Below are positions 5,358 to 30,715 of a stretch of DNA of 64,000 nucleotides, in pieces. The notes beneath the pieces were generated by a model. That model did not search any database. It was not told the origin of the DNA and saw only the letters and a program-made list of their open reading frames with translations. The stretch comes from Myxococcales bacterium (GTDB taxonomy: Bacteria > Myxococcota_A > Polyangia > Polyangiales > DASUME01): positions 2,464,001 through 2,528,000 of the forward strand of contig JASGJH010000001.1 of assembly GCA_047601445.1 (NCBI GenBank), written 5' to 3'. A program made the position numbers and the translations under genes. Positions within the stretch are counted from its first letter, which is position 1. Every line of letters begins with the position of its first letter.

Positions 5358-6635
5358 TCAGAGATGATCGAGCAAGTAGAGCCAGGCGAAGTAGGCCACC
5401 GCGGTCAGCGCGCCCACACCCACATAGCGCCACGGAAAGCGGTGCTTGGGTCGTCGGCTTTCGAACGCTTGGGGCTCCCGCCCACGCGCGTCCGCGTGGC
5501 GCGGAGCGGGAGCGCGGCTGTGTTCGGACTGGTGCACGGCCCGGCCCACTGGCTCGCGCACTATTTGGCCTGTGGGAGGTCGATGGCTGCTCGGTCCGGG
5601 CGTCTCGTGCCAGGGCTGTCCGCTGGCGGCTGCGGGGGGCGGGGCGTAGGAGCCGGACGCCGGCGCCGGAGGCGCGTACGAGCTGGAGGAAGGCGCCGGA
5701 GGCGCGTACGAACCTGACGCAGGGGGACGCTGACTGGGGGCAGGAGCCGGCGCGGCCACCGAAGCGGGTGCCACGGGGGTATAGCCCTGCTGGGTCGAGC
5801 GCCGCTCGCGACCTGCGGGTTCGACACTCGGCTCGGGGGCCGACCCACGGGCCTCGGCCTGCTGGTGGGGAAAGCCCTGGATGGTGCGCTGGTCTTCATC
5901 CCCCAGGGAACCGCCGCCGACGCGACGCCCGCCCGGCAAGGCCACGCCGAGGCCCACGCCCATCAAAGTCTGGTTGGGTGGCGGGCCCGACCTGCCAGCC
6001 GGTGCAGGCGTTGACGGCGTCGCGGGGACACTCGGCCGCGGTCGGGCCGATGGGGAACTGGCAGGGGGTGGGGCCTCGGAGATGCCGAGCAGAGTGGCCT
6101 TGTGTGGCCGCTGCCCGCTTTGCTCAGCCTCGTCCTGGTTGACCGATGCCCGCAAGTGGGGCGGCAAGCTCGCGGCGTCGATGGGCGCCACCCCGAGCAG
6201 GGTGGCTTTGGCCGTGGGACGTGCGCTGGGCAGGCGCTCGGAGCTCATGGGCGGGAGTGGGGTGGGATCCTTGCGGTCCTTCCCCTGGGGAGCCGGCTGA
6301 ACGGCGGCTCCGGTCTCCACCACGATGGCGGCTTTCCCGAAGTCGATGCGCACGCGGCCCGTGAGGGCGCGCCACTGAGCGCCAACCAGAATGCCGTCCA
6401 TCCGGACGCCACCGGCACCGTAAACGTCGGCAATGCGTAGGACGCTGCCGTCCCAGTGCAGGGAGAAGTGCACGGGAGCCACGCCGATTTCCCGCACAAT
6501 CCAGTCGCAGCCAGGGCTCTGACCCACTGTCAGCGTGGTGCCACCGGCGGAACCCGTCAGCTCGAGATTCAGAGCCGTGGATTCGCCCTGCGCGAGTCTC
6601 AGTCGCGCCCAGGACTCCGGATCGCCTGCCGACAT
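5358..6635 (-). CDS. FHA-like domain protein with Pro-rich linker and C-terminal transmembrane anchor
   Basis: N-terminal beta-rich FHA-like pattern (TVGQSPGCD...HFSL...RIDFG), SYAPPAP repeats, C-terminal hydrophobic helix. Confidence 0.65.
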
Positions 6636-6815
6636 CCGAACCCTGCCCTCCCCAAGCGCGCGTCGGCGCGCGTACTAACCATAGTCGCGCGTCACCACGC
6701 GAACGACCAGCTGGCCGGTGCTGGGCCCCAGGACCCCGGGCCAGTTCGCGAGGATGATGACATGAGCTGCCCGGTCGAGAAAGTCGCCGAGCACGCGAAA
6801 TCCGCGCGTCCGCGT

Positions 6816-7679
6816 TCAGGAGCGCGGGTCGAGGCGCTTGGGATCGCCCAGGATTCCGCGCTCCACGAAATCCGCGGCGAAGTGCCCGCAGTTGGCCGCC
6901 AGCTGCTCGACCTCGCGATCGTTCAAGCCCTCGGTCTCGATTTGGGGCCCCACGTAGACCTCGAGCGGGTGCGGGCGCACGACCCACTCCCCACGACGCA
7001 GGATTTGCCAAAGGCCGCGCACCGCAATGGGCACCACCGGGATGCCGCTGTCGCGGGCCATGCTGAAGAGCCCGCGCCGGTAAGGGAGCAGGCGGCCGTT
7101 CTGGGTGCGCCGTCCCTCCGGGAACCCGAGGATCGAGATGCCTCGCCGTACGCGGTCCTGAACCTGCGCCTTGACCATGTCGGCCTGGCCCTGTTCACCT
7201 TTGGTGACCCCGATGCCGTTGCCGCGCTTCATCAGCCAGCCGTAGACCGGAACGTTGAAGTGGTGAGCGTGCTGGATGCCGCAGAAGGCATGGGGAATGG
7301 CCCACAACGCCACGTGCGCGTCGAGGATGCTCGTGTGGTTCATGACGAACAGGCTGACGCGGTTCGGATCGAAGTCCTCGTGGTAGCGCAGCGAAGCCCG
7401 GCGCAGGGGGATGATCTGCGGCACCAGTCCCATCAAGGGCTGCGGCAGATGCGGCATGATCTTCTCGAACGGGACGAACAGAGAGAGCGGCACGCTGCTC
7501 ACGAACGCGGCCGTCATCAGCCCCACGGAGATGGGCCACGCACCGAGCACGGACCAGACCTTGTAGAGCGGCTCGAGCGGCGCATCGAGAGACAGCGGCA
7601 GCGGGTCCACCCCAGATTCCGGTGCGACGCCGGACTCGTGCTCTTTGAGTACCGCGATCGGATTCAGTCTCATACGCAA
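6816..7679 (-). CDS. Lysophospholipid / 1-acyl-sn-glycerol-3-phosphate acyltransferase (PlsC family)
   Basis: NHTSILD (HX4D), FPEGRR, IPVVP. Confidence 0.85.
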   Translation of the reverse strand: MRMRLNPIAVLKEHESGVAPESGVDPLPLSLDAPLEPLYKVWSVLGAWPISVGLMTAAFVSSVPLSLFVPFEKIMPHLPQPLMGLVPQIIPLRRASLRYHEDFDPNRVSLFVMNHTSILDAHVALWAIPHAFCGIQHAHHFNVPVYGWLMKRGNGIGVTKGEQGQADMVKAQVQDRVRRGISILGFPEGRRTQNGRLLPYRRGLFSMARDSGIPVVPIAVRGLWQILRRGEWVVRPHPLEVYVGPQIETEGLNDREVEQLAANCGHFAADFVERGILGDPKRLDPRS

Positions 7680-8572
7680 ACCTCGAGTGCCTGGTGCAGA
7701 ACTTCCAGCCGTTCAGGCCACACGGAGATCACCTCTCCATCAATCATAGCGTCCATCGGGCGATCGACCTTGAACACGATGCTGCGGGCCTGGCGGCTCT
7801 CCACAGCGGGGTGCGTCACGTGCGTTCCTTCGAAAATCTTCGGGAAAGTACTCAGAAGCCCGAAGCGGCTCAGCGCACCGACGCTGATCAACTCGGCCAG
7901 TCCGTCGCTGGCGTCCGCGTTGGGGGCCATCATCATCTTGCCGCCGGTGAAGCGGCTGTTGTTGATGGAGATGAAGGTCTTGGGCCGCTCGTCGAAGGAG
8001 CCGCCGTCGAGTGCCACCGGGATGGGGCGCGCCTCGAGGCCGATCAGCTTGGTGACCACGCCGAGCCCGTAGCCCGCCTCGCCGAAGCGCTTGAAGCGCT
8101 GGTTGGCGACCGTGCAAGCATCGGCCACGAAGCCGAAGCTCAAGATGTTGATGTAGAACAAGTCGCCGTCGCGATGCTTGAGCCAGATCACGTCGCAGCG
8201 GCGCCGCTTGCGCTCCATGAGCGCCTTTCGCGAATAGATGGCGCCCTCGGTGGTGAAGTCACGCAGGAAGGAATTGCCGGTGCCGAGCGGCAAGAAGCCC
8301 AGGGTGGGCACTTGCTTGGCGCGGAACGCCTCGGGAAAGAGTCCGTTGACGATCTCGAAGCCGGTGCCGTCGCCCCCCACGGCGATGAAGCGTCGCACGC
8401 CCTCGCTGAATGCTTTGCGCGCGACCTGCGTGGCCTCGCCGGGTGCACCCGTCTTGAAGACCGCGATGTCGAGCCCGGCCTCACGCAAGCTCGCCAGGGC
8501 GTCGTTCGCCTCTTTGCCGCAGCGCCCGCCGCCTGCCGCTGGATTGACGATCGCCAAGAACTGCTCGGCCAC
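7670..8572 (-). CDS. Diacylglycerol-kinase family lipid kinase (YegS/DgkB-like)
   Basis: IVNPAAG, GGDGT, PLGTGNSF, IDGE. Confidence 0.88.
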   Translation of the reverse strand: MAEQFLAIVNPAAGGGRCGKEANDALASLREAGLDIAVFKTGAPGEATQVARKAFSEGVRRFIAVGGDGTGFEIVNGLFPEAFRAKQVPTLGFLPLGTGNSFLRDFTTEGAIYSRKALMERKRRRCDVIWLKHRDGDLFYINILSFGFVADACTVANQRFKRFGEAGYGLGVVTKLIGLEARPIPVALDGGSFDERPKTFISINNSRFTGGKMMMAPNADASDGLAELISVGALSRFGLLSTFPKIFEGTHVTHPAVESRQARSIVFKVDRPMDAMIDGEVISVWPERLEVLHQALEVCV

Positions 8573-8652: not shown

Positions 8653-10365
8653 TTACAGCGAGATCACCGCTTCGTCACGCGCAGTTTGCTTGGCCAGCTG
8701 TTTTGCCAGCTCCTCGCGCTTGATCTTCTGGGACGCGGTGCGCGGGAACTCCTGCCCCCAGACCACCACCCCATGCAAACGCTTGTACTCACTCAGCTTG
8801 GCGTTGAGCTTGCGCACCCGCGCCAGGAACGCCTGATCACAAGCCTTGTCGGGCTTGGGCCGCAGCGCGAGGACCAGCTGCTCGCCCACCAACTTGCCCG
8901 AGGGCCACACGTAGTTCGCCGCGAATACGCAGAACTCTTCTAGATCATCGTCGAGCTCCGCGAAGGCACTCTCGATGTCTTCGGGATAGACGTTCTTGCC
9001 GCCCGAGGTGACGATCATGTTCTTGGCGCGCCCGAACAACTTGAGGTGCCCGGAGGCGTCCATCAGGCCCAGGTCCCCCGTCTTGAGCCAACCGTCCTGG
9101 ATCGTGGCAGCGGTGAGCTCGGGGGCGTCCAGGTAGCCCTTCATCACAGTGGGCCCACGCACCCAAACCTCGCCGACTCCCTCGTCGTTGACGTCACGCA
9201 CCTCCACCTCGGTGCCAGCCACGGGCGGGCCCACGGTGTCGGCTCGGAACGGCTTGAGATCGTTGATCGAGATCACGGTGCCGGCCTCGGTGAGGCCGTA
9301 GCCGATCAGCACCGGCAGACCCAGGCGGTAGAAATACTCGGCGTTCTTGCGCTCCACGAAGGCGCCGCCCGCGAAGATCATGCGGAGCTTGCCGCCGAAC
9401 TTGTCGTGAATGGGCTTGAGCAGATTGCGCGAGAGGGCGTGCTGCGGCTTGCGCTGTGTGGCGAGCTCGTTGAAGTCCGAGAGTCGCTTGATCAGGGTGC
9501 GCTGCCAGTCCTCGCGCTCGTCGAGCTGCTCCTCGATCTTGGTCTCGAGGGCACGCAGGATGCGCGGCACCAGGGCCATGTGGGAGATGCCGTATTCCTT
9601 CATGGTCGGCATCAGGAACTCGGGCCGCAGCGTGCGCTGGTGCACCACGGCCGCGCCGAACAGGAAGGGCACGATGAACCCGCACATGAAGTCCACGGCG
9701 TGGTTCGTCGGCAGGATGGAGAAGTAGCGGTCCTCCTCCAGCATGGGGAACAGGCGCCCCAAGACCTCGGCCTGCGCGAGATAGTTGCCGTGCGTCAGCA
9801 TGCAACCCTTGGGCGTACCACTGGTGCCCGACGAGTACACGATGCACGCCACGTCCTCGCGCGTGCGCAGCCTGAACTCGAACCTGCCCGGCTCGAGCTG
9901 CTCGAAGCGCACGGCCGGCCCGAGATCCGCCTTCTCGGGCGCCTCGGTGACGATGACCTTGGTGCCCTTGATGCGGCCCAGGTCTTCCTTGAGCAGCAAG
10001 CGCCACACCGGGTACTCGGTGAAGAGGACCTGGGGGCGACAGTGCGCGAGCAGGTCGAGCTGCTCCTTCGCGGTGAGCTTGTAGTCGAGGGGCACCAGCG
10101 TGGCGCCGGCCCACAGCGCGCCGAGGCCGCCGATCACCCACTTGGACTGATTGCTCAGCAGCACCGCGCAGCGATCGCCCGCCTGAAAGCCGTTGCTCTC
10201 CAGGTGCGACGCGAAGTGCTCCGCCTTGCGCCGCAGCTCCGTATACGTGAAGCGTTCCTTCTCGCGGTGGCGGTCGGCCTCGATCAGCGCGGTGTTCGTC
10301 TTGTAGGTGAGCACGGCATCGCGCAGTGCTTCTCCGAGGCAAGTTAGGCGAGACAGGTCCAGCAT
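8653..10365 (-). CDS. Long-chain acyl-CoA/acyl-ACP synthetase (AMP-binding)
   Basis: YSSGTSGTPKG, GYGLTE, TGDLG, GKNVYPEDIE, ASQKIKR. Confidence 0.88.
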   Translation of the reverse strand: MLDLSRLTCLGEALRDAVLTYKTNTALIEADRHREKERFTYTELRRKAEHFASHLESNGFQAGDRCAVLLSNQSKWVIGGLGALWAGATLVPLDYKLTAKEQLDLLAHCRPQVLFTEYPVWRLLLKEDLGRIKGTKVIVTEAPEKADLGPAVRFEQLEPGRFEFRLRTREDVACIVYSSGTSGTPKGCMLTHGNYLAQAEVLGRLFPMLEEDRYFSILPTNHAVDFMCGFIVPFLFGAAVVHQRTLRPEFLMPTMKEYGISHMALVPRILRALETKIEEQLDEREDWQRTLIKRLSDFNELATQRKPQHALSRNLLKPIHDKFGGKLRMIFAGGAFVERKNAEYFYRLGLPVLIGYGLTEAGTVISINDLKPFRADTVGPPVAGTEVEVRDVNDEGVGEVWVRGPTVMKGYLDAPELTAATIQDGWLKTGDLGLMDASGHLKLFGRAKNMIVTSGGKNVYPEDIESAFAELDDDLEEFCVFAANYVWPSGKLVGEQLVLALRPKPDKACDQAFLARVRKLNAKLSEYKRLHGVVVWGQEFPRTASQKIKREELAKQLAKQTARDEAVISL

Positions 10366-10370
10366 GGCTC

Positions 10371-10607
10371 TCAGCGTCGGGTGTCGATGACTTCGGCCAA
10401 GCCCTCGAAGGTCTTGACGTCTTGCAGTTCGTAGTCCGGTACTTCCACGTCGAACTCGATCTCGAGTTCGCTCAAGAGCTCCAGCGCCTGCACGCTGTCG
10501 ATGCCGAGCGCGGCGAAGAAGTCGTCGCCCGGCTTGAGGCCGCTGGTGTCGACCTTGAATTTCTTGCCTGCCAGGGTGATCAAACGCTGCAGTGTGTCTT
10601 GGGACAT
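10371..10607 (-). CDS. Acyl carrier protein
   Basis: 78 aa acidic protein with LGIDSV phosphopantetheine site. Confidence 0.9.
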   Translation of the reverse strand: MSQDTLQRLITLAGKKFKVDTSGLKPGDDFFAALGIDSVQALELLSELEIEFDVEVPDYELQDVKTFEGLAEVIDTRR

Positions 10608-10622
10608 GGGGACTCTCGCTGG

Positions 10623-11402
10623 TTACGGGAGATAGGGTCGGAGATCGGTGCTCTCGACGAACTTCTTGAGGGCCACCTCGGCCGGGGGGCGCTGGAGGAG
10701 GCGCTTGAACAGCTGCTTCTCCTGCTCGAGTTCGGCGTAGGGCACGTGCTTCATGAAGGCCTTGCAGGTGGCCGCCGCCTCGGGGTCGAAGCGCGTGGCC
10801 TGCTTGGCCGTGGCACGCGCCACGTCGACGTGCTTGCCCTGGGCCACCATCTGGCTGACGAGACCCAACGTCTGGGCCTTCTTGGCGTTCAAGCTGCGTC
10901 CCGTGAGCAGAAGGTCGCGGACGACCCCGTTACCCACGTCGCGTTTGAGCCGAGGAATGCCACCGAAGCCCGGCACGATGCCGAGGCGCAGCTCGGGAAA
11001 GCAAAAGCGCGCCGTCTTGTCGGCGATCAGCACGTCGCAGGTCAGTGCCAGCTCGAAGCCGCCGCCGAAGCACACCCCATGGATGGCCCCGATGGTGGTC
11101 AAGGGCAGCGCGTCGAGCGTGTTCATCACGGCGTGGATGCGATCGATGAAGTCCCCGATGCGCCGCTCTCGCTCCGCGGGATCCCGGGTCGCAATCAGCC
11201 AGGCGTAAACCGCACGCAAGTCGGCGCCAGCGCAAAAGCCCCCGGGCATGCTCGAATAGATCACGAGCGCTCGGCCCTGGTTCGGGTCGATCTCCGTGAG
11301 CGCCTTCTCCAGCGCCTCCAGCATGCCCTCGCCGATCTCGTTCACCGGCGGTGCGCACAGCTCGAGCTCGTACACGCCCTGATGGAGCCGCAGGTTGATC
11401 AC
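10623..11402 (-). CDS. Enoyl-CoA hydratase/isomerase family protein
   Basis: FCAGADL, GGGFELAL, FPELRLGIVPGFGG (both catalytic Glu present). Confidence 0.88.
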   Translation of the reverse strand: MINLRLHQGVYELELCAPPVNEIGEGMLEALEKALTEIDPNQGRALVIYSSMPGGFCAGADLRAVYAWLIATRDPAERERRIGDFIDRIHAVMNTLDALPLTTIGAIHGVCFGGGFELALTCDVLIADKTARFCFPELRLGIVPGFGGIPRLKRDVGNGVVRDLLLTGRSLNAKKAQTLGLVSQMVAQGKHVDVARATAKQATRFDPEAAATCKAFMKHVPYAELEQEKQLFKRLLQRPPAEVALKKFVESTDLRPYLP

Positions 11403-13027
11403 TCGTACATCCCCTGGATCTCGACCGCGTAGCGCTTTTCCACGGCAGCGCGCTTGAGCTTCTGATTGGCGGTCAACTGACCGTTCTCCACGCTGAAGGG
11501 CTCCGGCGCGATGAAGAAGCGGCGCAGGCGGCGGTAGTGGGGAAGCTCGGCATTGAGCTGATCGATGGCGGTCTGCACCGCGTCGGGCGCCGCGCTGCCG
11601 GTGACGATGGCCGACAGGTACGGCTTGGCGTGACCTACCACCATCACCTGGGCACCGGCCATGAAGTTGGCCAGCTTCTCTTCGAGCGGTCCGGGCGCCA
11701 CGTTGTGTCCGCTCTCGGGCACGAGCAGGTCCTTGAGGCGACCGACGATACGCAGGTAACCGTCACCCGTGACCTCCGCCATATCGCCCGAGTGAAACCA
11801 GCCATCGCGAATGCTGGTGGCCGTGGCGTCCGGACGTTTCCAGTACTCGGGAAAGATGTTCGGCCCGCGGCAGATCAGCTCTCCCTCGTCGGTGACCTGC
11901 ATCTCGACACCGTCGATGACCTTGCCCACGTAACCCGGGCGCGCCTGGTTCTTCTGGTCCATCGTGACGATGGCCGTGGTCTCGGTGAGCCCATAGACCT
12001 GGTACACCGGAATGCCCACCAGGCCGAACCAGCGCTGAGTCTCGTCGCTCAAGGGTGCCGAACCGCAGATCAAAAACTCTAGGTTTTTGCCGATTTGCTC
12101 GCGGATCTTGGGGAACACGATGCGCTTGGCGACTTCACGCGCGAACTTGTCCTTCAAGGTCGCGATGCCACGTGCGCTGCGTTCGTTGCCCTCCACGGCG
12201 TGGCGGTACAGCGAGTAAGCCAGGCCGCCGCGCTCCTTGAGCTTGTTGCTCACGCCGAGCCGAATACGCTCGAGCAGCGCGGGCACGTTCAAGAAGTAGT
12301 GGGGCTGCGCGGTGGCGAGTTCCTTCACCAGGTTGTTGAGGTCGGTGGAGAACATCAGCGGGTTACCCCGCGCGAGCTGCGACCAAAGCTGGATGCGGGA
12401 TCCCGCGAAGCACACGGGCAGGTAGTGGAAGACCCGGTCGGGCCCCTGACGCTCGCCCACCATGCTGCCGATGCCGTCGATGGTGCGCTTGAGCATGAAG
12501 TCGACGTTGTCGACCGTGTAGAGCACGCCCTTGGGCTCTCCACTGGTACCCGAGGTGTAGATCATGGTGACGCGGTCGTTGCCCGAACGCGCCAGCGGCT
12601 TGGTCTCGCCCTTGGCGTGCGAGAACACCTCGTCGAACAGCGCAATCGCGCCCTTCCCGGCCGGCCAAGCCGCGCTCAGGCTCTCCTTGAGCGCAGGCGT
12701 GTCCACCAGGACCAAGCGGGTCTCACAGTTGGTGAGCATGCCAGCCAGTTCGTTGGCTGCCTGACGATCGTACATGGGGACGACGATGCCGCCCGCGCCG
12801 AGGATGGCCAGGTCCGCAGCCGCCCAGCGCGCCGAGTTGTGCGCGATCAGGGCCACACGGTCTCCGGGGGCCACGCCACGGCTGCTCAAGAAGCCTCGGG
12901 CCGCGGCCACCAGGTCCTTGATCTGACGCCCGCTGAACTCGACTAGCTTCTCGCCGTGCACTTCGAGGATCAACGCTTCGTTGGCGCGAGCGTCCAGGCT
13001 CGCGTGCATTTGCTCGATGAACGTCAT
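11399..13027 (-). CDS. Second long-chain acyl-AMP ligase (AMP-dependent synthetase)
   Basis: YTSGTSGEPKG, YGLTET, SGD, LTANQKLKR. Start trimmed to MTFIEQ (ATGA overlap with upstream gene). Confidence 0.87.
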   Translation of the reverse strand: MTFIEQMHASLDARANEALILEVHGEKLVEFSGRQIKDLVAAARGFLSSRGVAPGDRVALIAHNSARWAAADLAILGAGGIVVPMYDRQAANELAGMLTNCETRLVLVDTPALKESLSAAWPAGKGAIALFDEVFSHAKGETKPLARSGNDRVTMIYTSGTSGEPKGVLYTVDNVDFMLKRTIDGIGSMVGERQGPDRVFHYLPVCFAGSRIQLWSQLARGNPLMFSTDLNNLVKELATAQPHYFLNVPALLERIRLGVSNKLKERGGLAYSLYRHAVEGNERSARGIATLKDKFAREVAKRIVFPKIREQIGKNLEFLICGSAPLSDETQRWFGLVGIPVYQVYGLTETTAIVTMDQKNQARPGYVGKVIDGVEMQVTDEGELICRGPNIFPEYWKRPDATATSIRDGWFHSGDMAEVTGDGYLRIVGRLKDLLVPESGHNVAPGPLEEKLANFMAGAQVMVVGHAKPYLSAIVTGSAAPDAVQTAIDQLNAELPHYRRLRRFFIAPEPFSVENGQLTANQKLKRAAVEKRYAVEIQGMYE

Positions 13028-14472
13028 GCCGTCTTCTCCAGAATCGCGCGCACGGCGGCGGGCAAGGAAGGCAGGTTGGCCTCCCAGGTGCGGGGCAGGT
13101 CGGGCCTGGGGAAGCTCGGGTAGACGCGCATCACTTCGTCGCCGAAGTCCACGCCCATCTGGCCCATCAACTTCAGCTGCTTGGGGATGGCTTGCGCGAT
13201 CTCGGCGCGGATGCGATCGCCCTCGCGGTCGAGCTTGCGCAGCATCTGCAGCGTGCGCTCCTCCAGGTTCGGGTCGTCGACCTCGAGGCACAAGTCGTCG
13301 TGGCCACGGTCGTGCATCAGGTTGCGGATGCGCTCGTCCATGGTGATGCCACCCGAGGAAACCAGGCCCGGCATCGACGTGACGACCGCGTGGAAACGCG
13401 ACGTCACCAACATCGAGCAGTTCCGCAGCACGCTGACCAGGTCGTACATGTTGTATTCGTCGCTGACGAACAGGGGCGCGTCCTGGTCGAGCCGCGACTC
13501 CACCTCTTCGCAAGCGATGCGGTCGAGCTGCTCCATGCCGATCAGCACGGGAAACACCCGCTTTTCCTTGCGGAACGCGTTGACGGCGTTGGCGATCGCG
13601 CCGCAGTAAGTGTCGAACTTGGCCTCCACCTCGGACGCGGCGTTGTGGAAGTACACGCTCTTGTAGTGCTCGCGCTTGAACTGGCCGTACACGTGCATGG
13701 CGGCGGTCTTCAGCACATCGGGCTTTACCGGCCACCAGAACGGATTGATCGGCCCCACCGCCAGCACGGGCGTCTCGCCGTCCCAGCCCTGCTCGCGCAG
13801 CAGCTGAGCCCCGCGCGACAGCGGTGCAGGCTCGAAGGTCCAGGCCGTGTCCGCGCCACCCACGTTACGGATGCCCATGTCGTCGAGCACCTTGCGCGAG
13901 GGCACGTTGCGGCAGAGTACGAAGCTGTTCTTGCAGTTCTTCTCCACGAAGCGCTTCATGTGCGGCGTCATGGCGCCTGCCTCGGCGCCGTAGCCCACGC
14001 TGATCTTGTTCTCGGCGGCCGCCATGCCGATGGCTCCCGCCATGAACGTGGTCAGCGCGTCGGCGAACTTGCTCTTGAACATCGAGCCTTCGCACGCGAT
14101 GGCGCCGTGGTGCTTGGGCACCTCGTCGAAGAGGAACTTGGGGAACACCGTGGGCAGCTCCACCTGGCGCACCGTGCGGAAGTAGCCCGCCGTCAACTCG
14201 GGATCGACCGTGGTGAGCGTGAGCTCCAGGTTGTCGTCACCCAGCACGTGGCGGACCTGGCGGATCATCTCCTCCACGCGCACGTCGCCGCCCGTGTTGC
14301 GCGCGCCCGAATAGCCCGCGAACAGCAGCTTGAGCGGCTGGCCTGCCTTGTAGACGCTCGGCGAGCGGTCGAGCGCGTGACGCGTCCCGACGGCTTCGAT
14401 CAAGGCGTCGACAGTCATCATCAGCGCTCGATCGGGATCGAACGCCTTGTTGAACTTATCGAGAAACCCCAT
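13024..14472 (-). CDS. Polysaccharide pyruvyl transferase-family (CsaB/WcaK-like) protein
   Basis: GYSGARNTGGD resembles the GYxGxxNxGD motif; GADTAW; TSRFH. Start trimmed to MGFLDKF. Confidence 0.7.
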   Translation of the reverse strand: MGFLDKFNKAFDPDRALMMTVDALIEAVGTRHALDRSPSVYKAGQPLKLLFAGYSGARNTGGDVRVEEMIRQVRHVLGDDNLELTLTTVDPELTAGYFRTVRQVELPTVFPKFLFDEVPKHHGAIACEGSMFKSKFADALTTFMAGAIGMAAAENKISVGYGAEAGAMTPHMKRFVEKNCKNSFVLCRNVPSRKVLDDMGIRNVGGADTAWTFEPAPLSRGAQLLREQGWDGETPVLAVGPINPFWWPVKPDVLKTAAMHVYGQFKREHYKSVYFHNAASEVEAKFDTYCGAIANAVNAFRKEKRVFPVLIGMEQLDRIACEEVESRLDQDAPLFVSDEYNMYDLVSVLRNCSMLVTSRFHAVVTSMPGLVSSGGITMDERIRNLMHDRGHDDLCLEVDDPNLEERTLQMLRKLDREGDRIRAEIAQAIPKQLKLMGQMGVDFGDEVMRVYPSFPRPDLPRTWEANLPSLPAAVRAILEKTA

Positions 14473-14477
14473 GGGAA

Positions 14478-15677
14478 TCAGGCTCCGGCGTCGAAGCTGG
14501 AAACCCCACCCACGCCGTTGCCATTGCCCTTGCCGGAGCGCTTGGCTGCGCTCGCGACATCCTCGGGCCACGGCTTGTACGGGTACTTGAAGTTGCCTTC
14601 GGTGGCGAACTTGAACAGGTGGAAGCAGTAGTCCGTGAACGGCGTCGGAGCGTGTCCGAGCACCTTCTGGATGCGCGTGTTGTCGAACACCGTGTCGTAG
14701 GTGAGGTACGGCAGGAACACCTTCATCAGCGACGCGCCGCCGGCCACGCCCCACTTCTTGGGGCTGTCCATCAGGCGGTCCACCGCCTTCTCGAAGGTCG
14801 GCACCAAACCGGGCGCAAACAGGTGATGCGTCCCGTGACCCGACTTGCGCATGGCGTCGGTGATCTGGCGGTAGGTCGGCGACGCCAACCCGGTGCTCAG
14901 GTTGTACGCGTCGTGTTCGGGCTTGTCCTGCATGTGCACGGCCACGATGCCGGCCCCCACGTAGTTGGCGGGCACGATGTCCATGCGCCAGGAGGCGTCG
15001 AGCGGCAGCACGGGCAGCTTCGCCAGGAACACGAAGGCGCGCACCATGTCGAACTGGGTGGTGCCAGGGTGCCGACTATCACCGAGCACGGTGCTGGGCC
15101 GGAACACCGTGACGGGAACCTCTGGCAGGAGCTCGTGCACCATGTGCTCGCAGAACTTCTTCGTGCGCGAGTAGGGATCGTAGTCGCTCTTGTCCCAGTT
15201 GATGGCCTCGGCCTCGTGGACGTTCTGGCTCTGCACTTCGCCGCTGACGGCCACCGTGGACACGTCGCTGAAGCGACGCAATCCGTGGTGGTCCTGGGCG
15301 GCGCGCGCGAGCTTCACCACCTCGAGCGTGCCGCGCAGGTTGACGTTGAAGCAGGCCTTGTTCGACTTGCGATTCAGCGAGGCAGCGCAGTGAATGATGC
15401 TGCTCGTGTCGTGAACGAGCTTCTGATAGGTCGCCGCGTCGAGCCCGAAGTTCCTGTCGGTGAGATCGCCCAGGTAGATGTCGATCTTGGTCTGCAAGTG
15501 CTCGTAGAAGGTGGCGAAGTCCATGTGCATCTGCAGCGACTGCCACAGGCGCTTGGCGCCATCCTGCTTGTTCTTGGCGCGCACCAGCAGCGCGAGCTTC
15601 TGACCGTGTTGATTGAGTAGCCCGTGAGCCACGTAGGAGCCGAGGTAACCCGTGGCCCCCGTGAGAAAGATCGTCAT
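14478..15677 (-). CDS. Extended SDR / thioester-reductase-like oxidoreductase
   Basis: TGATGYLGS, IIHCAAS, VSTVAV, YSRTK (YxxxK), FRPSTVLGDS. Confidence 0.82.
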   Translation of the reverse strand: MTIFLTGATGYLGSYVAHGLLNQHGQKLALLVRAKNKQDGAKRLWQSLQMHMDFATFYEHLQTKIDIYLGDLTDRNFGLDAATYQKLVHDTSSIIHCAASLNRKSNKACFNVNLRGTLEVVKLARAAQDHHGLRRFSDVSTVAVSGEVQSQNVHEAEAINWDKSDYDPYSRTKKFCEHMVHELLPEVPVTVFRPSTVLGDSRHPGTTQFDMVRAFVFLAKLPVLPLDASWRMDIVPANYVGAGIVAVHMQDKPEHDAYNLSTGLASPTYRQITDAMRKSGHGTHHLFAPGLVPTFEKAVDRLMDSPKKWGVAGGASLMKVFLPYLTYDTVFDNTRIQKVLGHAPTPFTDYCFHLFKFATEGNFKYPYKPWPEDVASAAKRSGKGNGNGVGGVSSFDAGA

Positions 15678-17437
15678 TCCGCAACCTCTGTAACTTCGGC
15701 AGCCGGCGCGTGACGCCGACCGGAATCGCTGCGCAAGGCCGTGGGTTCGACGCTGACTTCGGGCAGCACCACCGGCACCTTGGGCACGTAGTTCTCGACC
15801 TTGGTGTTCTCGATCAAGGGGAACGACCAGCGTCGCAGCCCCGGGACGTGCTGATTAATCCAATAGCGCCGCCAGTCCAGTCGCTTCGGCTCGTAATGGA
15901 AGAAAGGCTCCTTCACCTCGATGCCGACCAGCTCCTCGCAACAGAAGGTCTGGCGGTTGTCCGAGACGAACGGCTTGTAGGTATCGAACACGCGCTCGGC
16001 CAGACGCAGGCGACGATCGAGGCGATCGGTCTTGCTGCGCAGCTTCTTGAGCTCCTTCTTGGCGAACTCGGGCCAGCTCTCGGGCGTGTCCTTGGCGAAG
16101 TCGGAGACCGCCTGCACCAACTTGCGCAGGTTCTCGACGCGCATGAAGTGGTCGTCTCCCACCACCTTGGCGTCCCAGCGCGAGAGCAGCACGCGTTCCA
16201 CCGCGTCTTCGCCGTGCTCGCGGTAGTGCCTGCGGTGGGCCAAGGACGTCAGCTCCAGACCACGCCCCACCGTGAGCGGATGGCGATCACTGGTGGCGCA
16301 CTGATACACGGGCTTGGCCTTGCCCTCGGCGAGCGCAGCCGAGGCGGCGATCAGGGCGGCGCAGCAGTGGTCCACGGGGACCACGTCGAGCGGCTTGTCC
16401 TTGTTGGCGGACATGTGCCTGAACCAGGTACCCATGAAGTAGACCAGGGGACCCGAGGTGTTGAGGCCCTCGTTCCAGCCCGGCAGCGGAAACGCCTCGG
16501 CGCTCTCGATGATGGCGGGCCTGAAGAAGCTCTTCTCGAGCTTGGGGAAGCGCTCCAGCAGCATGGACTCGGCCATGCTCTTGGTGAACGTGTACACGTT
16601 GGGCCAGCCCCAGTGCCGTGCCCGCTCCTTGCCGGTGTCCACCAGGCGCTCGCTGAGCAAGGCCTTGGACTCGCGGCGCAAGATGCGCTCGATGAGCTGG
16701 TGATTGTTCGGATCGTGGCCCTTCTCGACCACGCTCTTCACGAGATCCACGCGCAGCTTGGCCAGGGCGCTCTCGCTCTCCGTGTCCTCGTGCACCTTGG
16801 CGACGAGCTGCTTCAGGTAGCGATACTCGGCCTCCACGTCGAAGCCGGGGCGGACCGGCGCGTAGTTCGGGGTGGCCACCTCCATGATGCGGCCGTCCCG
16901 GTTGCCCGCCACGAAGCAGGTCGACACCTGCAGGAAGCTCGCGTTGCGCGCGGCTGCCGCGAACTCGGCCGCGTGGATGGTTCCCTCCACGTTGTTCTGC
17001 AACGCATCGCTGAGCTCGGGATCGAAGTCCACCTGCCCTGCACAGTGGATCACCATGTCGAGCTCGCGCTGAATGCGCGTGGCGATCTTGGGATCCACGC
17101 CGAGGCCCGGACGACTCACGTCACCGCTGATCACCTCGATGCGCTCGGCGAGAAACTGGGAGAGTCCATCGCCGTGGCGATCGTGGAGCACCTTGAAGGC
17201 GTAGGTGTCGTTGATCATGCGCTGGAAGCGCTCGCGGGCCCCCTGCTTGCCCTTGCCGCGCAGCAGCACGTAGATGCGACCGACCTGCGGAACCTTGTCC
17301 AGCATCATGGAGAGCCAGACCTTGCCCAAAAAGCCACTCGCTCCGGTGAAGAGGATGTGACGACCCGCAAGTGCTTTCTCGACCGACAACGACATGCTCA
17401 TTGTTCCTCGACTCAAATTCCGTTTCGCGCTCACCAC
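15674..17437 (-). CDS. Fatty acyl-CoA reductase (alcohol-forming, male-sterility/FAR type)
   Basis: TGASGFLGKV, HCAGQVDFD, GWPNVYTFTKSMAE, RPAIIESA, PLPGWNEG, C-terminal DWRRYW...HVPGLR. Start uncertain among several nearby codons. Confidence 0.82.
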   Translation of the reverse strand: MVSAKRNLSRGTMSMSLSVEKALAGRHILFTGASGFLGKVWLSMMLDKVPQVGRIYVLLRGKGKQGARERFQRMINDTYAFKVLHDRHGDGLSQFLAERIEVISGDVSRPGLGVDPKIATRIQRELDMVIHCAGQVDFDPELSDALQNNVEGTIHAAEFAAAARNASFLQVSTCFVAGNRDGRIMEVATPNYAPVRPGFDVEAEYRYLKQLVAKVHEDTESESALAKLRVDLVKSVVEKGHDPNNHQLIERILRRESKALLSERLVDTGKERARHWGWPNVYTFTKSMAESMLLERFPKLEKSFFRPAIIESAEAFPLPGWNEGLNTSGPLVYFMGTWFRHMSANKDKPLDVVPVDHCCAALIAASAALAEGKAKPVYQCATSDRHPLTVGRGLELTSLAHRRHYREHGEDAVERVLLSRWDAKVVGDDHFMRVENLRKLVQAVSDFAKDTPESWPEFAKKELKKLRSKTDRLDRRLRLAERVFDTYKPFVSDNRQTFCCEELVGIEVKEPFFHYEPKRLDWRRYWINQHVPGLRRWSFPLIENTKVENYVPKVPVVLPEVSVEPTALRSDSGRRHAPAAEVTEVAE

Positions 17438-17459: not shown

Positions 17460-18128
17460 TCAGCGGTATTCGAGAACCGGCCAATCGGCGTCGCGCGCGG
17501 CGGCGCGCAACGCGAAATCAGGATTCACGGCGCAGGGTTTGCCCACGCTCGAAAGCAAGAGGATGTCCGCTCCGTGTGCCGCATAGGCGGGAGACTGCGC
17601 CAGATCCAGGCCGCGCTCGCTCGCGTAGTGCTTGACCCACTTGGAGCTGTCGTGTCCGCCGATGACGGGCTCGAGCAGCTTGCCGGTGGCCTCACCGCGC
17701 ACGAACTCGAGACGGTTGCAGACGTAGTCATCGGCGCCGATCTCGGAGACGAGCTTGCTCACGACCTGCTCGATGCCCTCACTGAGTAGCACCACGCGAT
17801 GGCCGTCCTTGCGCGCCTTCTTAACGAGTTCCTTGCCCTTCTCGTAGATGCGCTCACGCAGGATGTCTTTGAAGTACTCCTCCGCGAGCTCTGCGATGCG
17901 GTCCTCCGACATGTGGCGAAGGGTCACATAAGCGGCGCGTGTGGCAAGCGTGCGATCGTTCTGAGACAGCCAGCCATAGACGGGAGCTCCCAGGGCCAGG
18001 GCGCCCACGCGGAAGGCGCGCTCGGCGAACCCCTGTGCATTGCTTGCGAAGTAGGCAGACGCCGCGAGCGCACCGCGGTCGATGAGGATGCCTTCTACTC
18101 TGAAAAACGCTGTGGTCTGTGGTGCCAA
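17460..18128 (-). CDS. HAD-IB (SerB-like) fold protein lacking catalytic aspartates
   Basis: Overall HAD-IB pattern (GHRVVLLS, NRLEF..GEATG, VGKPCAVNPD..LR..A...WPV), but motif I reads FFRVEGIL. Confidence 0.75.
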   Translation of the reverse strand: MAPQTTAFFRVEGILIDRGALAASAYFASNAQGFAERAFRVGALALGAPVYGWLSQNDRTLATRAAYVTLRHMSEDRIAELAEEYFKDILRERIYEKGKELVKKARKDGHRVVLLSEGIEQVVSKLVSEIGADDYVCNRLEFVRGEATGKLLEPVIGGHDSSKWVKHYASERGLDLAQSPAYAAHGADILLLSSVGKPCAVNPDFALRAAARDADWPVLEYR

Positions 18129-19893: not shown

Positions 19894-20583
19894 ATGAGTG
19901 CGTACGATCCGGTGGCGGTACTCTACGACCGCGCCTTCGAGGACATCCGGGTGCGGCGGGCCGAGTGGCGCTGGGTTCAGCGGCGGCTTCAGGCCTTCCA
20001 GGCTCCCCCACGGGCCCTGGAGATCGGCTGCGGCACCGGTGCCTTGCTGCGGGCACTGACGCCCAGTCTCTCCTGCGGGGTGGGATTGGATGTGTCCGGG
20101 CCGATGCTGGAGCAAGCCCGGCAGCGGGCGCGCCATCTGCCCACGCTTTCGTTCGTACAGATCGAGGGGCCCGCGCTGCCGGTGCCGGACGCCTCGCACG
20201 ATCTCGTGATCTCGTTCCTGTCCTTCCGGTACCTGGACTGGCCCGCGATCTGGCCCGAGATCCGGCGGGTACTCGCTCCAGGTGGGCGCTTCTGGATGGT
20301 GGACATGGTGGCGAGCAAGCCAGCCCCCGGCGATCTGCCTCTCTTGGCCCGGGCGGGGGTTCGCAAAGTGCTCGCCCCACTGCGCACCCCGCGTCTGGCC
20401 CGCGATCTCAAGGCCCTCACCAGGCACCCGGAATGGCAGACGATGCTGGCGCAGCACCCCGCCCGGCCGCTCTCCGAGTACCAGGCGTTCTTCAGTCGTA
20501 CCCTACCCGGGCGATCGCTGCGTACCCTGGACGTGAGCCCGAGCCGGCGCGTCATCGCGATCGACAGCGGTGCACTTCGATGA
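19894..20583 (+). CDS. Class I SAM-dependent methyltransferase
   Basis: LEIGCGTG, GLDVSGPML, LPVPDASHDLV, RVLAPGG. Confidence 0.85.
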   Translation: MSAYDPVAVLYDRAFEDIRVRRAEWRWVQRRLQAFQAPPRALEIGCGTGALLRALTPSLSCGVGLDVSGPMLEQARQRARHLPTLSFVQIEGPALPVPDASHDLVISFLSFRYLDWPAIWPEIRRVLAPGGRFWMVDMVASKPAPGDLPLLARAGVRKVLAPLRTPRLARDLKALTRHPEWQTMLAQHPARPLSEYQAFFSRTLPGRSLRTLDVSPSRRVIAIDSGALR

Positions 20584-21332
20584 GCTGCGTGGGGATGTTG
20601 GACTGGGGGATCGGCGGGATCGGGTGCTACCGGCTGCTCAAGCGCGAACTCCCGCGAGTGCCCGTGATCTACTGGTCGGACACGGGTGCGGTGCCCTACG
20701 GCAAGCTGCCGCGGCGGGAACTCACGCGGCGCGTGGAACGCGTGCTCGAAGCGCTCCGCCGGTTGGGCGCCTCACATTTGGTGGTCGCCTGCAACGCGGC
20801 GTCCACCGTGTTGGATGCGATCGCCTCGCCGCTCCCCACCGTGGGCGTGATCGAGGTCGCGCAGTTCGCGGTGCCGAGCGACCTGCGCGGGACGTTGGCC
20901 GTGATCGGGGGCGGACGTACGGTGCGCTCGGGACTGCACCGACGATCGTTGGCGCGCCGTGGCCTGCGCGTGGTGTCGCGCGTGGCGCAGCCGCTCTCGG
21001 GGCACATCGAGGGCGGTCGCGTGGGGAGCGCCGCATATCGGGCCGATCTGGCGCGCATCATGGCGCCGATCACACAGGCCGACGCCGTGCTCCTGGCATG
21101 CACGCACTACCCGGCGATCGCTGAGGACATTCAGGCCGAGCTCGCGCGCGACGTGCCCCTGCTCGATCCCGCCCAGGCCTTGATCGCGCAGGCGGTGGAG
21201 CGTTTTGGGCTCCAGTCGCAGCGCGGGGCCGATCGCTTCGTGACCACGGGCGCGCCGCGCGAGATGCGAGCGGCGGCCCGACGCGCCTGGGGCGTTACTC
21301 TGCCGCGTTGTGAGCGAGTAGCGCTGCGCTAG
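20580..21332 (+). CDS. Glutamate/aspartate racemase family protein (MurI-like, divergent)
   Basis: DWGIGG, PYG, VACNAAS, LACTHYP. ATGA overlap with the methyltransferase. Confidence 0.8.
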   Translation: MSCVGMLDWGIGGIGCYRLLKRELPRVPVIYWSDTGAVPYGKLPRRELTRRVERVLEALRRLGASHLVVACNAASTVLDAIASPLPTVGVIEVAQFAVPSDLRGTLAVIGGGRTVRSGLHRRSLARRGLRVVSRVAQPLSGHIEGGRVGSAAYRADLARIMAPITQADAVLLACTHYPAIAEDIQAELARDVPLLDPAQALIAQAVERFGLQSQRGADRFVTTGAPREMRAAARRAWGVTLPRCERVALR

Positions 21333-28763: not shown

Positions 28764-29089
28764 TTCTTCCACCTCTTCCGGCTCGCAACAGCGGCCGATT
28801 CAGAGCGTATTCCATCAGCAATTACGCGTATTTGTGCGACATGGAGCGAGCTCGTTCGAAAGCCATCCAAGCACGTGACGGAGCTTTCTGATCCGCGAAT
28901 TCCCGGCGCTCGGACGCAACGACCGTTGCGTAAGCTGGTTTATCCCAGCGATTTTGCAGGCAGCGCCCAGTAGCGCGCGGTCAGTGCCCTGCCGCGTCGA
29001 TCCGAGGTATGGTCCGCAGCGCTCTTTTTTTTCGAGAGCCGAATTTTTTTTAGCCGTCTGACCTGCTTCGACATGAGGAACAACGACCC

Positions 29090-30715
29090 ATGCAGCAATC
29101 CAAAGTTCACGCCGTGAATCCCAACAGCGGCAAGTCCCAGCACAGCGCGGGCGAGACGGTCAGCCACGATCCCGCCACGCTCGAGGAGATCGGTCGCGTC
29201 GCCAATACCGATCTCGAATCGATGCCCGAAATCTTCGCGCGCGCTCGCGCGGCCCAGAAGCGTTGGGCGGCCCTGTCGTTCGCCGAGCGCAAGACGCACG
29301 TCCTGCGGATGCGCGACTACGTGGTGGACCACGCGGAAGATCTCGCCGCCATCGTGAGCCGCGACAACGGCAAGACCCGCACCGACGCCCTGACCACCGA
29401 GGTCATCCCCTCGGCGCTGGCGGCTGACTGGTACGCCAACAACGCGGCCGAGCTCCTGGCCCCCAAGAAACTCCCGATGGGGTCCATCCTGTTTGCGAAC
29501 AAGCGCAACGAGCTGCATCGCGTACCGCTCGGCGTGGTGGGCATCATCAGCCCGTGGAACTATCCGCTCTCCATTCCCTTCGGCGAGGTCGTGATGGGGT
29601 TGATGGCGGGTAACGCCATCCTCCTCAAGGTCGCGGCGGCGACCATCATGGTGGGCGAGGCCATCGAGCGCATCGTGGCCGCAGGCGAGCTGCCGAGCGG
29701 GCTGTTCCAGCACGTGGTGGGCTCCGGCTCCCGCGTCTCGCGCGCGTTCTTCGAGAACGGCATCAACAAGATCTTCTTCACCGGCTCGGTGCCCACGGGC
29801 AAGCAGCTGATGGCCGAGGCCGCCAAGACCTTGACCCCCGTGTCGCTCGAGCTGGGTGGCAAGGATCCGATGATCGTGCTGGCCGACGCGGACCTCGAGC
29901 GCGCCGCCAACGGTGCCTGCTGGGCCGGCTACCAGAACGCGGGCCAGAGCTGCGGCGGCGTCGAGCGCGTCTACGTGCATGAGTCCGTGTACCCGCAATT
30001 CGTGGAGCTGATGGTCCAGAAGACCAAGGCCATGCGCCACGGCGCCGACCGCGACTTCAACGTGGACATGGGTTCGATGACCACCGAGGAGCAACTCAAG
30101 ACCGTCGACCGTCAGGTGAAGGCGGCCGTGGCTGGCGGCGCGCGCATCCTCGCGCAGTCCAAGCCCGTGAATCCGTCCGACAAGGGCTACTTCTACCCGG
30201 CGACGCTGATGGTCGACGTGGATCACTCCATGGAATTGATGCGCGAAGAGACCTTCGGACCCGTGGTGCCCGTGATGAAGTTCTCGACCATCGAGGAGGC
30301 CATCGCGCTCGCCAACGACTCGAGCATGGCGCTCACCTCGTCGGTGTGGACCAAGGACACCGCACTGGGGCGACGCATCGCCCTGCAGCTCGAGTCGGGG
30401 GCGACCACCGTGAACGACCACCTCTACACGCACGGCCAGAGCGAGACGCCCTGGGGCGGCTGGAAGGAGTCGGGTCTCGGTCGCACGCACTCGGTGATCG
30501 GCCTCGAGGAAATGACGCAGCCGAAGCTGGTGAACTGGGACATGGTGTCGCCCAAGCGCAACATCTGGTGGTACCCATTCGACCGCGACACCTACGAGGG
30601 CATGTTCGCGGCTTTGAAGGCCAACTACCCGAAGTCCCCGGCCGAGCTGAGCCAGAGCATGGCGGCGCTCTCCAAGCTCGCGCTGAAGAAGATGTTCACC
30701 GCCTGGAAGCCCTGA
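29090..30715 (+). CDS. Aldehyde dehydrogenase
   Basis: ISPWNYP, FTGS, LELGGKDP, GQSC catalytic Cys, EETFGP. Confidence 0.92.
   Translation: MQQSKVHAVNPNSGKSQHSAGETVSHDPATLEEIGRVANTDLESMPEIFARARAAQKRWAALSFAERKTHVLRMRDYVVDHAEDLAAIVSRDNGKTRTDALTTEVIPSALAADWYANNAAELLAPKKLPMGSILFANKRNELHRVPLGVVGIISPWNYPLSIPFGEVVMGLMAGNAILLKVAAATIMVGEAIERIVAAGELPSGLFQHVVGSGSRVSRAFFENGINKIFFTGSVPTGKQLMAEAAKTLTPVSLELGGKDPMIVLADADLERAANGACWAGYQNAGQSCGGVERVYVHESVYPQFVELMVQKTKAMRHGADRDFNVDMGSMTTEEQLKTVDRQVKAAVAGGARILAQSKPVNPSDKGYFYPATLMVDVDHSMELMREETFGPVVPVMKFSTIEEAIALANDSSMALTSSVWTKDTALGRRIALQLESGATTVNDHLYTHGQSETPWGGWKESGLGRTHSVIGLEEMTQPKLVNWDMVSPKRNIWWYPFDRDTYEGMFAALKANYPKSPAELSQSMAALSKLALKKMFTAWKP

Follow-up and report, generated by a model that had tools for sequence, protein, structure and literature searches.

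A Pyruvyl-Transferase-Like Protein in a Conserved Bacterial Lipid Operon: A Possible Role in Ether-Lipid Synthesis

Introduction

In Myxococcus xanthus, the elb operon encodes ElbA (an NAD-epimerase), ElbB (a HAD protein), ElbC (of unknown function), ElbD (a fusion of fatty acyl reductase (FAR), ligase, acyl carrier protein (ACP) and acyltransferase) and ElbE (an NAD-epimerase), as summarised in PMC9131029. ElbD, and possibly ElbE, is required for the ether lipids of this organism, and the step that forms the ether bond is left unassigned in that account (PMC9131029, reviewing Lorenzen et al. 2014). A second group of described proteins comprises the ketal-pyruvyl transferases of glycans, such as Pvg1p of Schizosaccharomyces pombe (structure 5ax7), CsaB of Paenibacillus alvei and WcaK-like enzymes. 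The subject of this work is a gene for a pyruvyl-transferase-like GT-B enzyme of 482 amino acids (PT; positions 13024..14472, minus strand) within a stretch of 64,000 nucleotides from a Myxococcales bacterium (assembly GCA_047601445.1, contig JASGJH010000001.1, positions 2,464,001 to 2,528,000), hereafter called the window. PT belongs to the same superfamily as the glycan enzymes and is predicted to have the same two-domain GT-B-like fold. It has the common motifs V/C-R-D/N, T-A-D-P/T-D-T-A and R-x-H, and also N-x-G-D/E, with the aspartate aligned one position off. In contrast to them, it is encoded in a lipid operon without glycan genes, where its acceptor is predicted to be a lipid alcohol.

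The closest homologues of PT also lie in this type of operon, so a lipid-pathway acceptor is well supported by context. An intermediate of such a pathway, and not a glycan, is probably what the enzyme modifies.

The Gene and Its Protein Family

The PT reading frame runs on the minus strand from an ATG at 14472 to a TGA at 13024-13026. The original prediction had described CsaB/WcaK-like motifs in this gene and its coupling to an acyl ligase gene, and both can be found. The 482-residue protein contains LLFAGYSGARNTGGDVRVEEM (GYSGARNTGGD) and MLVTSRFHAVVTSMPG (TSRFH), and an ATGA at 13024-13027 overlaps the PT stop with the start of the downstream ligase gene, FACS542. On the other side, the ATG of PT lies 5 nt after the stop of the upstream reductase gene, FAR399, and has a GGAG upstream of it. 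Stop/start overlaps couple both the PT–FACS542 and the FACS542–crotonase junctions translationally. What had been observed for this gene is thus confirmed.

The Pfam family PS_pyruv_trans (PF04230) matches PT with 29.2 bits (E 1.1e-6, cut-off 25.3) over profile positions 110-267 of 280, i.e., partially. It is the sole Pfam match at E <= 0.01, a threshold that no glycosyltransferase family model reached. The NCBIfam model of CsaB (TIGR03609) gives 47.7 bits (E 1.3e-12), which is far from its equivalog cut-off of 213.1; PT is therefore a pyruvyl-transferase relative and no CsaB orthologue. Searches of the PDB by sequence, with PT alone or with the profile of its family, returned no match at E <= 10, so the PT alignment was compared with canonical PF04230 members instead. 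The family alignment holds 32 sequences from Myxococcota, Planctomycetota, Bdellovibrionota, Acidobacteriota, Acidimicrobiia, one cyanobacterium and Clostridia-labelled metagenome-assembled genomes (MAGs), and the canonical set holds 5 members from related genomes that score 87-146 bits. The two were aligned by hhalign with a probability of 97.4% (E 1.5e-11) over 349 columns, covering PT residues 45-434. As far as sequence comparison can tell, PT is a distant but real relative of the ketal-pyruvyl transferases, and it is in this distant form that the CsaB/WcaK-like assignment holds.

The residues expected to bind phosphoenolpyruvate (PEP) can be followed through the same comparison. The canonical profile aligns weakly to Pvg1p 5ax7 at 'tRDRQS' and 'DRLHAHI', which, with a chain offset of +53, correspond to R217 and R337-L338-H339 and so match the published Pvg1p numbers. 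In the modelled and docked Pvg1p complex of PMC10435577, R217, R337 and H339 contact PEP, and they are given alongside R148, H308 and K328 of CsaB. By transitive alignment, with no bound ligand, R188 (CRN), R359 and H361 (SRFH) of PT correspond to Pvg1p R217, R337 and H339. R381 lies 20 residues past H361, the same spacing as that from H308 to K328 in CsaB. All four residues are invariant in the 32 sequences, which come from six or more phyla; the PEP-binding Arg/His that had been proposed as a check thus have invariant counterparts at the modelled contacts. The motif N59-T-G61-[GA]-D63 is less regular, as hhalign puts D63 one position past the canonical N-x-G-D aspartate (D106 in Pvg1p).

An AlphaFold2 model of PT built from the alignment reached a pLDDT of 86.5 and a pTM of 0.84, and both Foldseek and VIA-align place it in the GT-B fold, one of the outcomes that the original prediction had set out to check. 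The better matches are PimA (Z 20.4), UDP-GlcNAc 2-epimerases (Z ~19-20) and MGD1 (Z 17.8), and Pvg1p (5ax7_B) appears at rank 33 with Z 15.9 and a root-mean-square deviation of 3.7 over 256 residues. The fold search was also tried as a test of the donor and set aside. No pyruvyl transferase was ranked first by either program, and with Pvg1p only 33rd, the fold ranking cannot decide the donor of PT. The predicted GT-B fold fits the family but fails to separate PT from nucleotide-sugar enzymes; it is the sequence evidence that separates them.

Two segments of PT are absent from the canonical members. Residues 1-44 form a helical N-terminal extension, and an insert at residues ~241-290 carries invariant aromatic residues (PINPFWWPVKPD, i.e., PINPFWWPVK, and EHYKSVYFH) and is in part modelled with low confidence. 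This insert is located where CsaB and Pvg1p have 'loop 1', a flexible loop that covers the active site (PMC10435577), and it may bind a hydrophobic acceptor.

Conservation across Phyla

Relatives of PT are numerous and form a tight family. Of 8,000 scored candidate proteins, 7,389 pass E 0.001, with identities to PT of 62-92% for the best 120; at the level of 50%-identity representatives, there are 687 at E 0.001 and 198 at 1e-30. A scan of species-representative genomes gave 474 PT relatives, of which the best 80 loci, all in other genomes, were kept. Since these 80 are the nearest relatives, with at least 50% identity, the counts apply to this subfamily alone. Partners were scored by tblastn with the window proteins, and the denominators are the loci with enough flank. 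The 80 loci span Myxococcota, Planctomycetota, Bdellovibrionota, Acidobacteriota, Acidimicrobiia and one cyanobacterium.

At least one operon partner accompanies PT in 76 of the 80 loci, and a FAR-type reductase is present in 44 of the 47 loci with at least 9 kb upstream. FAR399 lies directly upstream of PT in 57/71 loci, the second reductase, FAR587, within 3.8 kb upstream in 50/62 and the HAD gene within 4.5 kb upstream in 45/57. Downstream, the gene directly next to PT is FACS542 in 47/73 loci and either FACS542 or the crotonase in 54/73. The crotonase is found within 4 kb (48/66), the second ligase, FACS570, within 6 kb (39/60), the lipid kinase within 7.5 kb (36/57) and the acyltransferase, placed after the kinase, within 8.5 kb (30/55). 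The HAD gene, FAR587, FAR399, PT, the crotonase, FACS570 and the kinase all lie on one strand in 27 of the 45 loci with enough flank on both sides. The co-occurrence with FAR genes that the original prediction had called for is therefore widespread, and the closest homologues, which by its own terms would have spoken against it had they been mainly in polysaccharide loci, sit in the same lipid operon instead. No genes of polysaccharide loci (glycosyltransferases, flippase, polymerase) were found in the extra genes scanned in loci L019, L024, L045, L046, L052, L055, L058, L067, L076, L081 and L090. Literature searches aimed at this topic turned up no description of the PT operon and no ether-lipid data for Nannocystis.

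The operon also occurs in modified versions. In Acidobacteriota loci, the HAD gene is fused to FAR587 (L090:5695-8055), and a FabH-type ketoacyl synthase III, a conserved open reading frame (ORF) of 209 aa without family and a free ACP lie between the crotonase and the second ligase (L090:14181-15807 and 16566-16808; L076:8538-10152). These versions hold no sugar genes. In L046 and L055, where PT has no operon partner, the scanned neighbours encode SecDF, RecJ, MiaB, a small acyltransferase, PilZ, SIR2-like and PFK proteins, with no glycan genes among them. In some loci of Myxococcota and unclassified MAGs, the operon is split by a gene for a SIR2_2-domain protein, which is either inserted between FAR399 and PT or located immediately upstream of PT (L052:6053-7621, a locus that also has an OprB porin; L058:7159-8766; L055:3886-5454).

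More distant members have other surroundings. The source genome encodes a paralogue that is 55% identical to PT (G000:C1:6258386-6259813, plus strand, equal to L091:12375-13823; PF04230 37.0 bits). It is preceded by an ORF of 223 aa without family and followed by an alpha/beta hydrolase (Hydrolase_4). A search of the genome for canonical PF04230 genes gave this paralogue alone. A member with only 26% identity to PT (P0242, L103:5747-7183) adjoins genes for a thiamine-diphosphate (TPP)-dependent enzyme, an AurF-like diiron oxygenase and an HTTM-domain protein.

Genes of the Operon

The operon around PT is formed by ten genes, all on the minus strand, from 18128 to 6816. The first encodes an HAD-IB-like homologue of ElbB (17460..18128; Pfam HAD 72 bits). 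It has FRVEG in place of the DxDGT nucleophile motif, and the same holds in 11/11 PT-type loci aligned. In this alignment of the window and L011, L017, L025, L048, L053, L064, L072, L076, L088 and L090 with the elb-type loci L092, L094, L095 and L097, the motif of the nucleophile Asp reads F-R-V/A-E-G in the PT-type loci, whereas the ElbB of the elb-type loci has DVDGT in 4/4. As the nucleophile is replaced in every aligned PT-type locus, the HAD-like protein is probably a pseudo-phosphatase.

Two reductases follow. FAR587 (15674..17437; NAD_binding_4 180.8 bits) is a fatty acyl reductase that shares homology with the reductase domain at the N-terminus of ElbD, and FAR399 (14478..15677; NAD_binding_4 152.5 bits, TIGR01746 135 bits) is a stand-alone thioester reductase of the type of the R domains of nonribosomal peptide synthetases. 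Beyond PT lies FACS542, a FadD11-like acyl-CoA ligase (11399..13027; AMP-binding 192.9 bits), whose stop is overlapped by the start of a crotonase-type enoyl-CoA hydratase (10623..11402; ECH_1 135.8 bits). The crotonase sequence has GGGFELAL and FPELRLG, which we take to mark its two catalytic glutamates. Next come an ACP of 78 aa with an LGIDS motif (10371..10607; PP-binding 50.2 bits), the long-chain acyl-AMP ligase FACS570, a homologue of the ElbD ligase domain (8653..10365; AMP-binding 244.4 bits), and a lipid kinase of the YegS/DAGK type (7670..8572; DAGK_cat 84.6 bits, YegS_C 102.9 bits, and TIGR00147 127.7 bits, over its cut-off). The last gene encodes a PlsC/AGPAT-type acyltransferase (6816..7679; Pfam Acyltransferase 81.6 bits) and overlaps the kinase stop. 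The ACP and this acyltransferase are operon genes that were not mentioned in the original prediction.

The operon is flanked by genes for two T2SSE ATPases, a CinA-like protein, GuaA, a thiolase, a methyltransferase, PhoD and Mfd. Among the ORFs scanned between 1 and 30 kb of the window, none matched a glycosyltransferase, flippase or nucleotide-sugar family, in agreement with the earlier claim that sugar genes are missing here. Three ORFs, 5358-6635, 20570-21124 and 28940-30490, match no Pfam family. The ~1.4 kb that separate GuaA from the last operon gene (5434-6815) hold no confident gene, and ORF 5358-6635 (minus strand) shows a weak codon-position GC contrast.

Relationship to the elb Operon

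The kinship of this operon with elb is visible in several of its proteins. In a 151-genome sample of the phylum, FAR587 is 29-37% identical, over its residues ~16-544, to 45 open frames of at least 1,500 aa. Six ElbD-type loci were compared in detail, and in all six of them (6/6) homology to FAR587 and to FACS570 is found in one frame. The identity to the corresponding parts of these six frames is 32-35% for the reductase and 30-33% for the ligase, and the acyltransferase is 28% identical in 2/6 loci by tblastn. One ElbD-type frame, examined with Pfam, contains NAD_binding_4, AMP-binding, PP-binding and Acyltransferase domains and has an epimerase gene after it. The HAD protein of the window is 34-42% identical, over its full length, to the HAD proteins of four elb-type loci, where they are encoded ~1.9 kb upstream of the ElbD-type frame. 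FAR399 shows a weak likeness to the gene at the ElbE position (24% identity, E 5e-9). The domains of ElbD (reductase, ligase, ACP and acyltransferase) and the ElbB HAD thus all have homologues here, in the same general order.

The two operons also differ in several respects. ElbD is one fused protein, whereas its parts are four separate genes here, and the ElbB-type HAD keeps DVDGT, unlike the HAD-like protein of the window, which is without the DxD nucleophile. Between the HAD gene and the ElbD-type frame, at the elbC position, the elb-type loci have a LarA-like gene (L092:11452-13098, minus strand; Lar_N 124 bits), which is present in 5/6 of them (L092, L093, L094, L095 and L097). By tblastn, the LarA-like gene is found in 0/80 PT loci and nowhere in the window, and PT in turn is found in 0/6 elb-type loci. 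The window operon has PT, a second ligase, a crotonase and a lipid kinase instead. It was considered whether PT could itself be ElbC, and this was rejected: the LarA-like protein encoded at the elbC position bears no relationship to PT (hhalign probability 0.2%). As a side observation, the LarA-like gene hints that the classical Elb pathway includes an alpha-hydroxy-acid step.

Searches of the source genome with FAR587 and PF07993 revealed no fused ElbD-type gene; beyond FAR587, there was no match at E <= 1e-10, and the open frame of FAR587 itself has 616 aa. In the 151-genome sample, PT occurs in 17 genomes, ElbD-type frames in 45 and both in 1 (G102), counts that are descriptive since related genomes are not independent. 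In a preprint (PMC12224551), the elb (VEPE) cluster is described as unconserved in Nannocystis, Polyangium and Sorangium and as absent from Sandaracinus amylolyticus and Enhygromyxa salina. The PT operon is held by five Nannocystis species, by Paraliomyxa and by MAGs labelled Sandaracinus and Sandaracinaceae. The shared domains and the shared HAD protein, and the presence of PT where the LarA-like gene is missing, lead us to regard the window operon as a split relative of the Myxococcus elb operon, in which PT, a ligase, a crotonase and a kinase occupy the place of the LarA-like gene.

Proposed Pathway and Alternatives

A reading that accounts for these genes together can be offered tentatively, with chances somewhat short of even: PT may take the enolpyruvyl group from PEP and attach it to a fatty alcohol, and its neighbours may turn the product into an alkylglycerol phosphate. 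A fatty acid would be activated by FACS570 together with the ACP and reduced by FAR587 to a fatty alcohol. From this alcohol and PEP, PT would form a 2-O-alkyl enolpyruvate and release phosphate. This step would be the first half-reaction expected of a ketal-forming enzyme, the second of which a mono-alcohol could not complete. FACS542 would convert the product to its CoA thioester, 2-alkoxyacryloyl-CoA, and the crotonase would add water at C3 to give 2-O-alkylglyceroyl-CoA. The thioester would then be reduced by FAR399 to an alkylglycerol, which the YegS-type kinase would phosphorylate and the PlsC-type enzyme would acylate, giving an ether analogue of phosphatidic acid. The route gives each catalytic gene one role, and the stop/start overlaps that join PT, FACS542 and the crotonase fit a three-enzyme module. 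Hydration of methacrylyl-CoA is a precedent for hydrating a 2-substituted acryloyl-CoA. The original prediction had proposed a lipid acceptor, such as an alcohol derived from FAR, linked to the PEP-derived group by a ketal or an ether. The lipid context of that idea is supported, whereas the use of PEP, the fatty alcohol and the choice of an ether over a ketal, and with them the donor, the acceptor and every chemical step of the route, are what we infer from the genes.

Several observations weigh against the route from PEP and a fatty alcohol. Its order of genes is not universal: FACS542 is missing beside PT in 7 loci, and PT stands without any partner in 4/80 (L046, L055, L062 and L066). The 55%-identical paralogue sits outside any lipid operon, and the 26%-identical member lies beside a TPP enzyme without lipid genes, in a context that is also non-glycan. 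Within PT, the N-x-G-D aspartate (Pvg1p D106) aligns one off (G62/D63), and the fold is nearer to nucleotide-sugar GT-B enzymes (PimA, Z 20.4) than to Pvg1p (Z 15.9). The pseudo-HAD has no role in the route. Acidobacterial homologues found with a Blastocatellia-type PT carry only MAG names or none, and no strain with a known ether-lipid phenotype could be linked to the operon through them. We know of no family member that stops at the enol ether, and the chemistry proposed for PT is a prediction from sequence and gene context. Attack at C2 of PEP would predict a 2-O-alkyl glycerol; sn-2 ethers do occur in the ladderanes of anammox bacteria. However, the monoethers of Solibacter and Myxococcus are described as 1-O-alkyl (PMC10087280, PMC9131029), and the two pyruvyl transferases treated in PMC10435577, CsaB and Pvg1p, form ketals on sugars.

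This last point leads to the nearest alternative, namely that PT uses PEP on another acceptor of the lipid pathway, either forming a true ketal on a diol or acting on a hydroxyacyl intermediate, and gives an anionic pyruvylated lipid in place of a new glycerol backbone. The diol could be a long-chain 1,3-diol made by the crotonase and a reductase, or it could be the two free hydroxyls of a monoalkyl- or monoacyl-glycerol. Ketalpyruvyltransferases make 4,6-ketals, i.e., they act on a 1,3-diol (PMC10435577), which the crotonase and the reductases of the operon could build, and the conserved residues aligned to the modelled PEP contacts as well as the lipid context fit this proposal as they fit an enol ether. 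What it leaves without an obvious substrate are the second ligase, the lipid kinase and the PlsC-type acyltransferase. The operon has no acyl-CoA dehydrogenase to provide the enoyl-CoA, and the order of PT, ligase and crotonase, with its overlaps, fits a ligase and a crotonase that act after PT. This alternative is considered unlikely.

PT could also keep the GT-B fold without using PEP at all, glycosylating a lipid from a nucleotide sugar made elsewhere or carrying out another phospho-donor transfer. The top fold matches would favour this, as they are GT-B enzymes acting on lipids or sugars and all rank above Pvg1p, and the Pfam match of PT is marginal and partial. Yet no glycosyltransferase family matches PT at E <= 0.01, the profile–profile match to canonical pyruvyl transferases is strong and nearly full length, and the R...RxH...R residues at the modelled PEP contacts are invariant. 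No nucleotide-sugar gene was found in the extra or flanking genes of the six PT loci scanned with Pfam or in the window ORFs scanned. A loss of PEP use is therefore quite improbable. More improbable still, and close to refuted by context, is the view that PT is an ordinary polysaccharide pyruvyl transferase that lies among lipid genes by chance. It has the WcaK-like database names in its favour, but the synteny with lipid genes extends across six or more phyla, PT is coupled translationally on both sides, and its score is far under the CsaB equivalog cut-off. Canonical members lack both the 45-residue N-terminal extension and the aromatic insert 241-290 of PT, and even among the four partner-less loci, the two whose neighbours were scanned show no polysaccharide genes.

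Conclusions

The route from PEP and a fatty alcohol may be set beside other known reactions. MurA and EPSP synthase, whose fold and family we take to be unrelated to PT, would resemble it in mechanism only: the attack of an alcohol on C2 of PEP expels phosphate and yields an enol ether. Their acceptors are a sugar nucleotide and shikimate-3-phosphate, respectively, unlike the fatty alcohol predicted for PT. The chemistry of MurA and the low sequence identity are described in PMC10435577. With AGPS (alkyl-dihydroxyacetone phosphate (DHAP) synthase) and with the ester reduction by PlsAR/Ger, the pathway would share the class of end product, an alkyl-glycerol phospholipid. Both of those routes are described as beginning from a preformed glycerol or DHAP backbone (PMC9131029, PMC10087280), whereas in the PT route the C3 unit would come from PEP. 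No AGPS or PlsAR/Ger homologue is present in the operon. That bacteria of at least six phyla use the PT operon to make the glycerol backbone of an ether phospholipid de novo, starting with the etherification of a fatty alcohol by PEP, is a wider claim, which we hold to be doubtful.

Non-isoprenoid bacterial ether lipids underlie the palaeoclimate proxies that are based on brGDGTs (branched glycerol dialkyl glycerol tetraethers). The PT operon provides a testable candidate for a missing route by which aerobic bacteria form non-isoprenoid ether bonds. What ElbD does in the Myxococcus pathway is described as only partly defined (PMC9131029), and Solibacter is reported to have mono- and diethers without ElbD (PMC10087280). 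If the proposal is true, bacteria would have a third way to make ether lipids, one that requires no oxygen and dispenses with both AGPS and PlsAR. Its products would be alkyl ethers of the sn-2 type, and it could explain ether lipids in aerobes without ElbD. Should the chemistry fail, the operon would still mark an uncharacterised, conserved lipid pathway. Should it hold, the pyruvyl-transferase family would extend from glycans to lipids, with a glycerol backbone derived from PEP.

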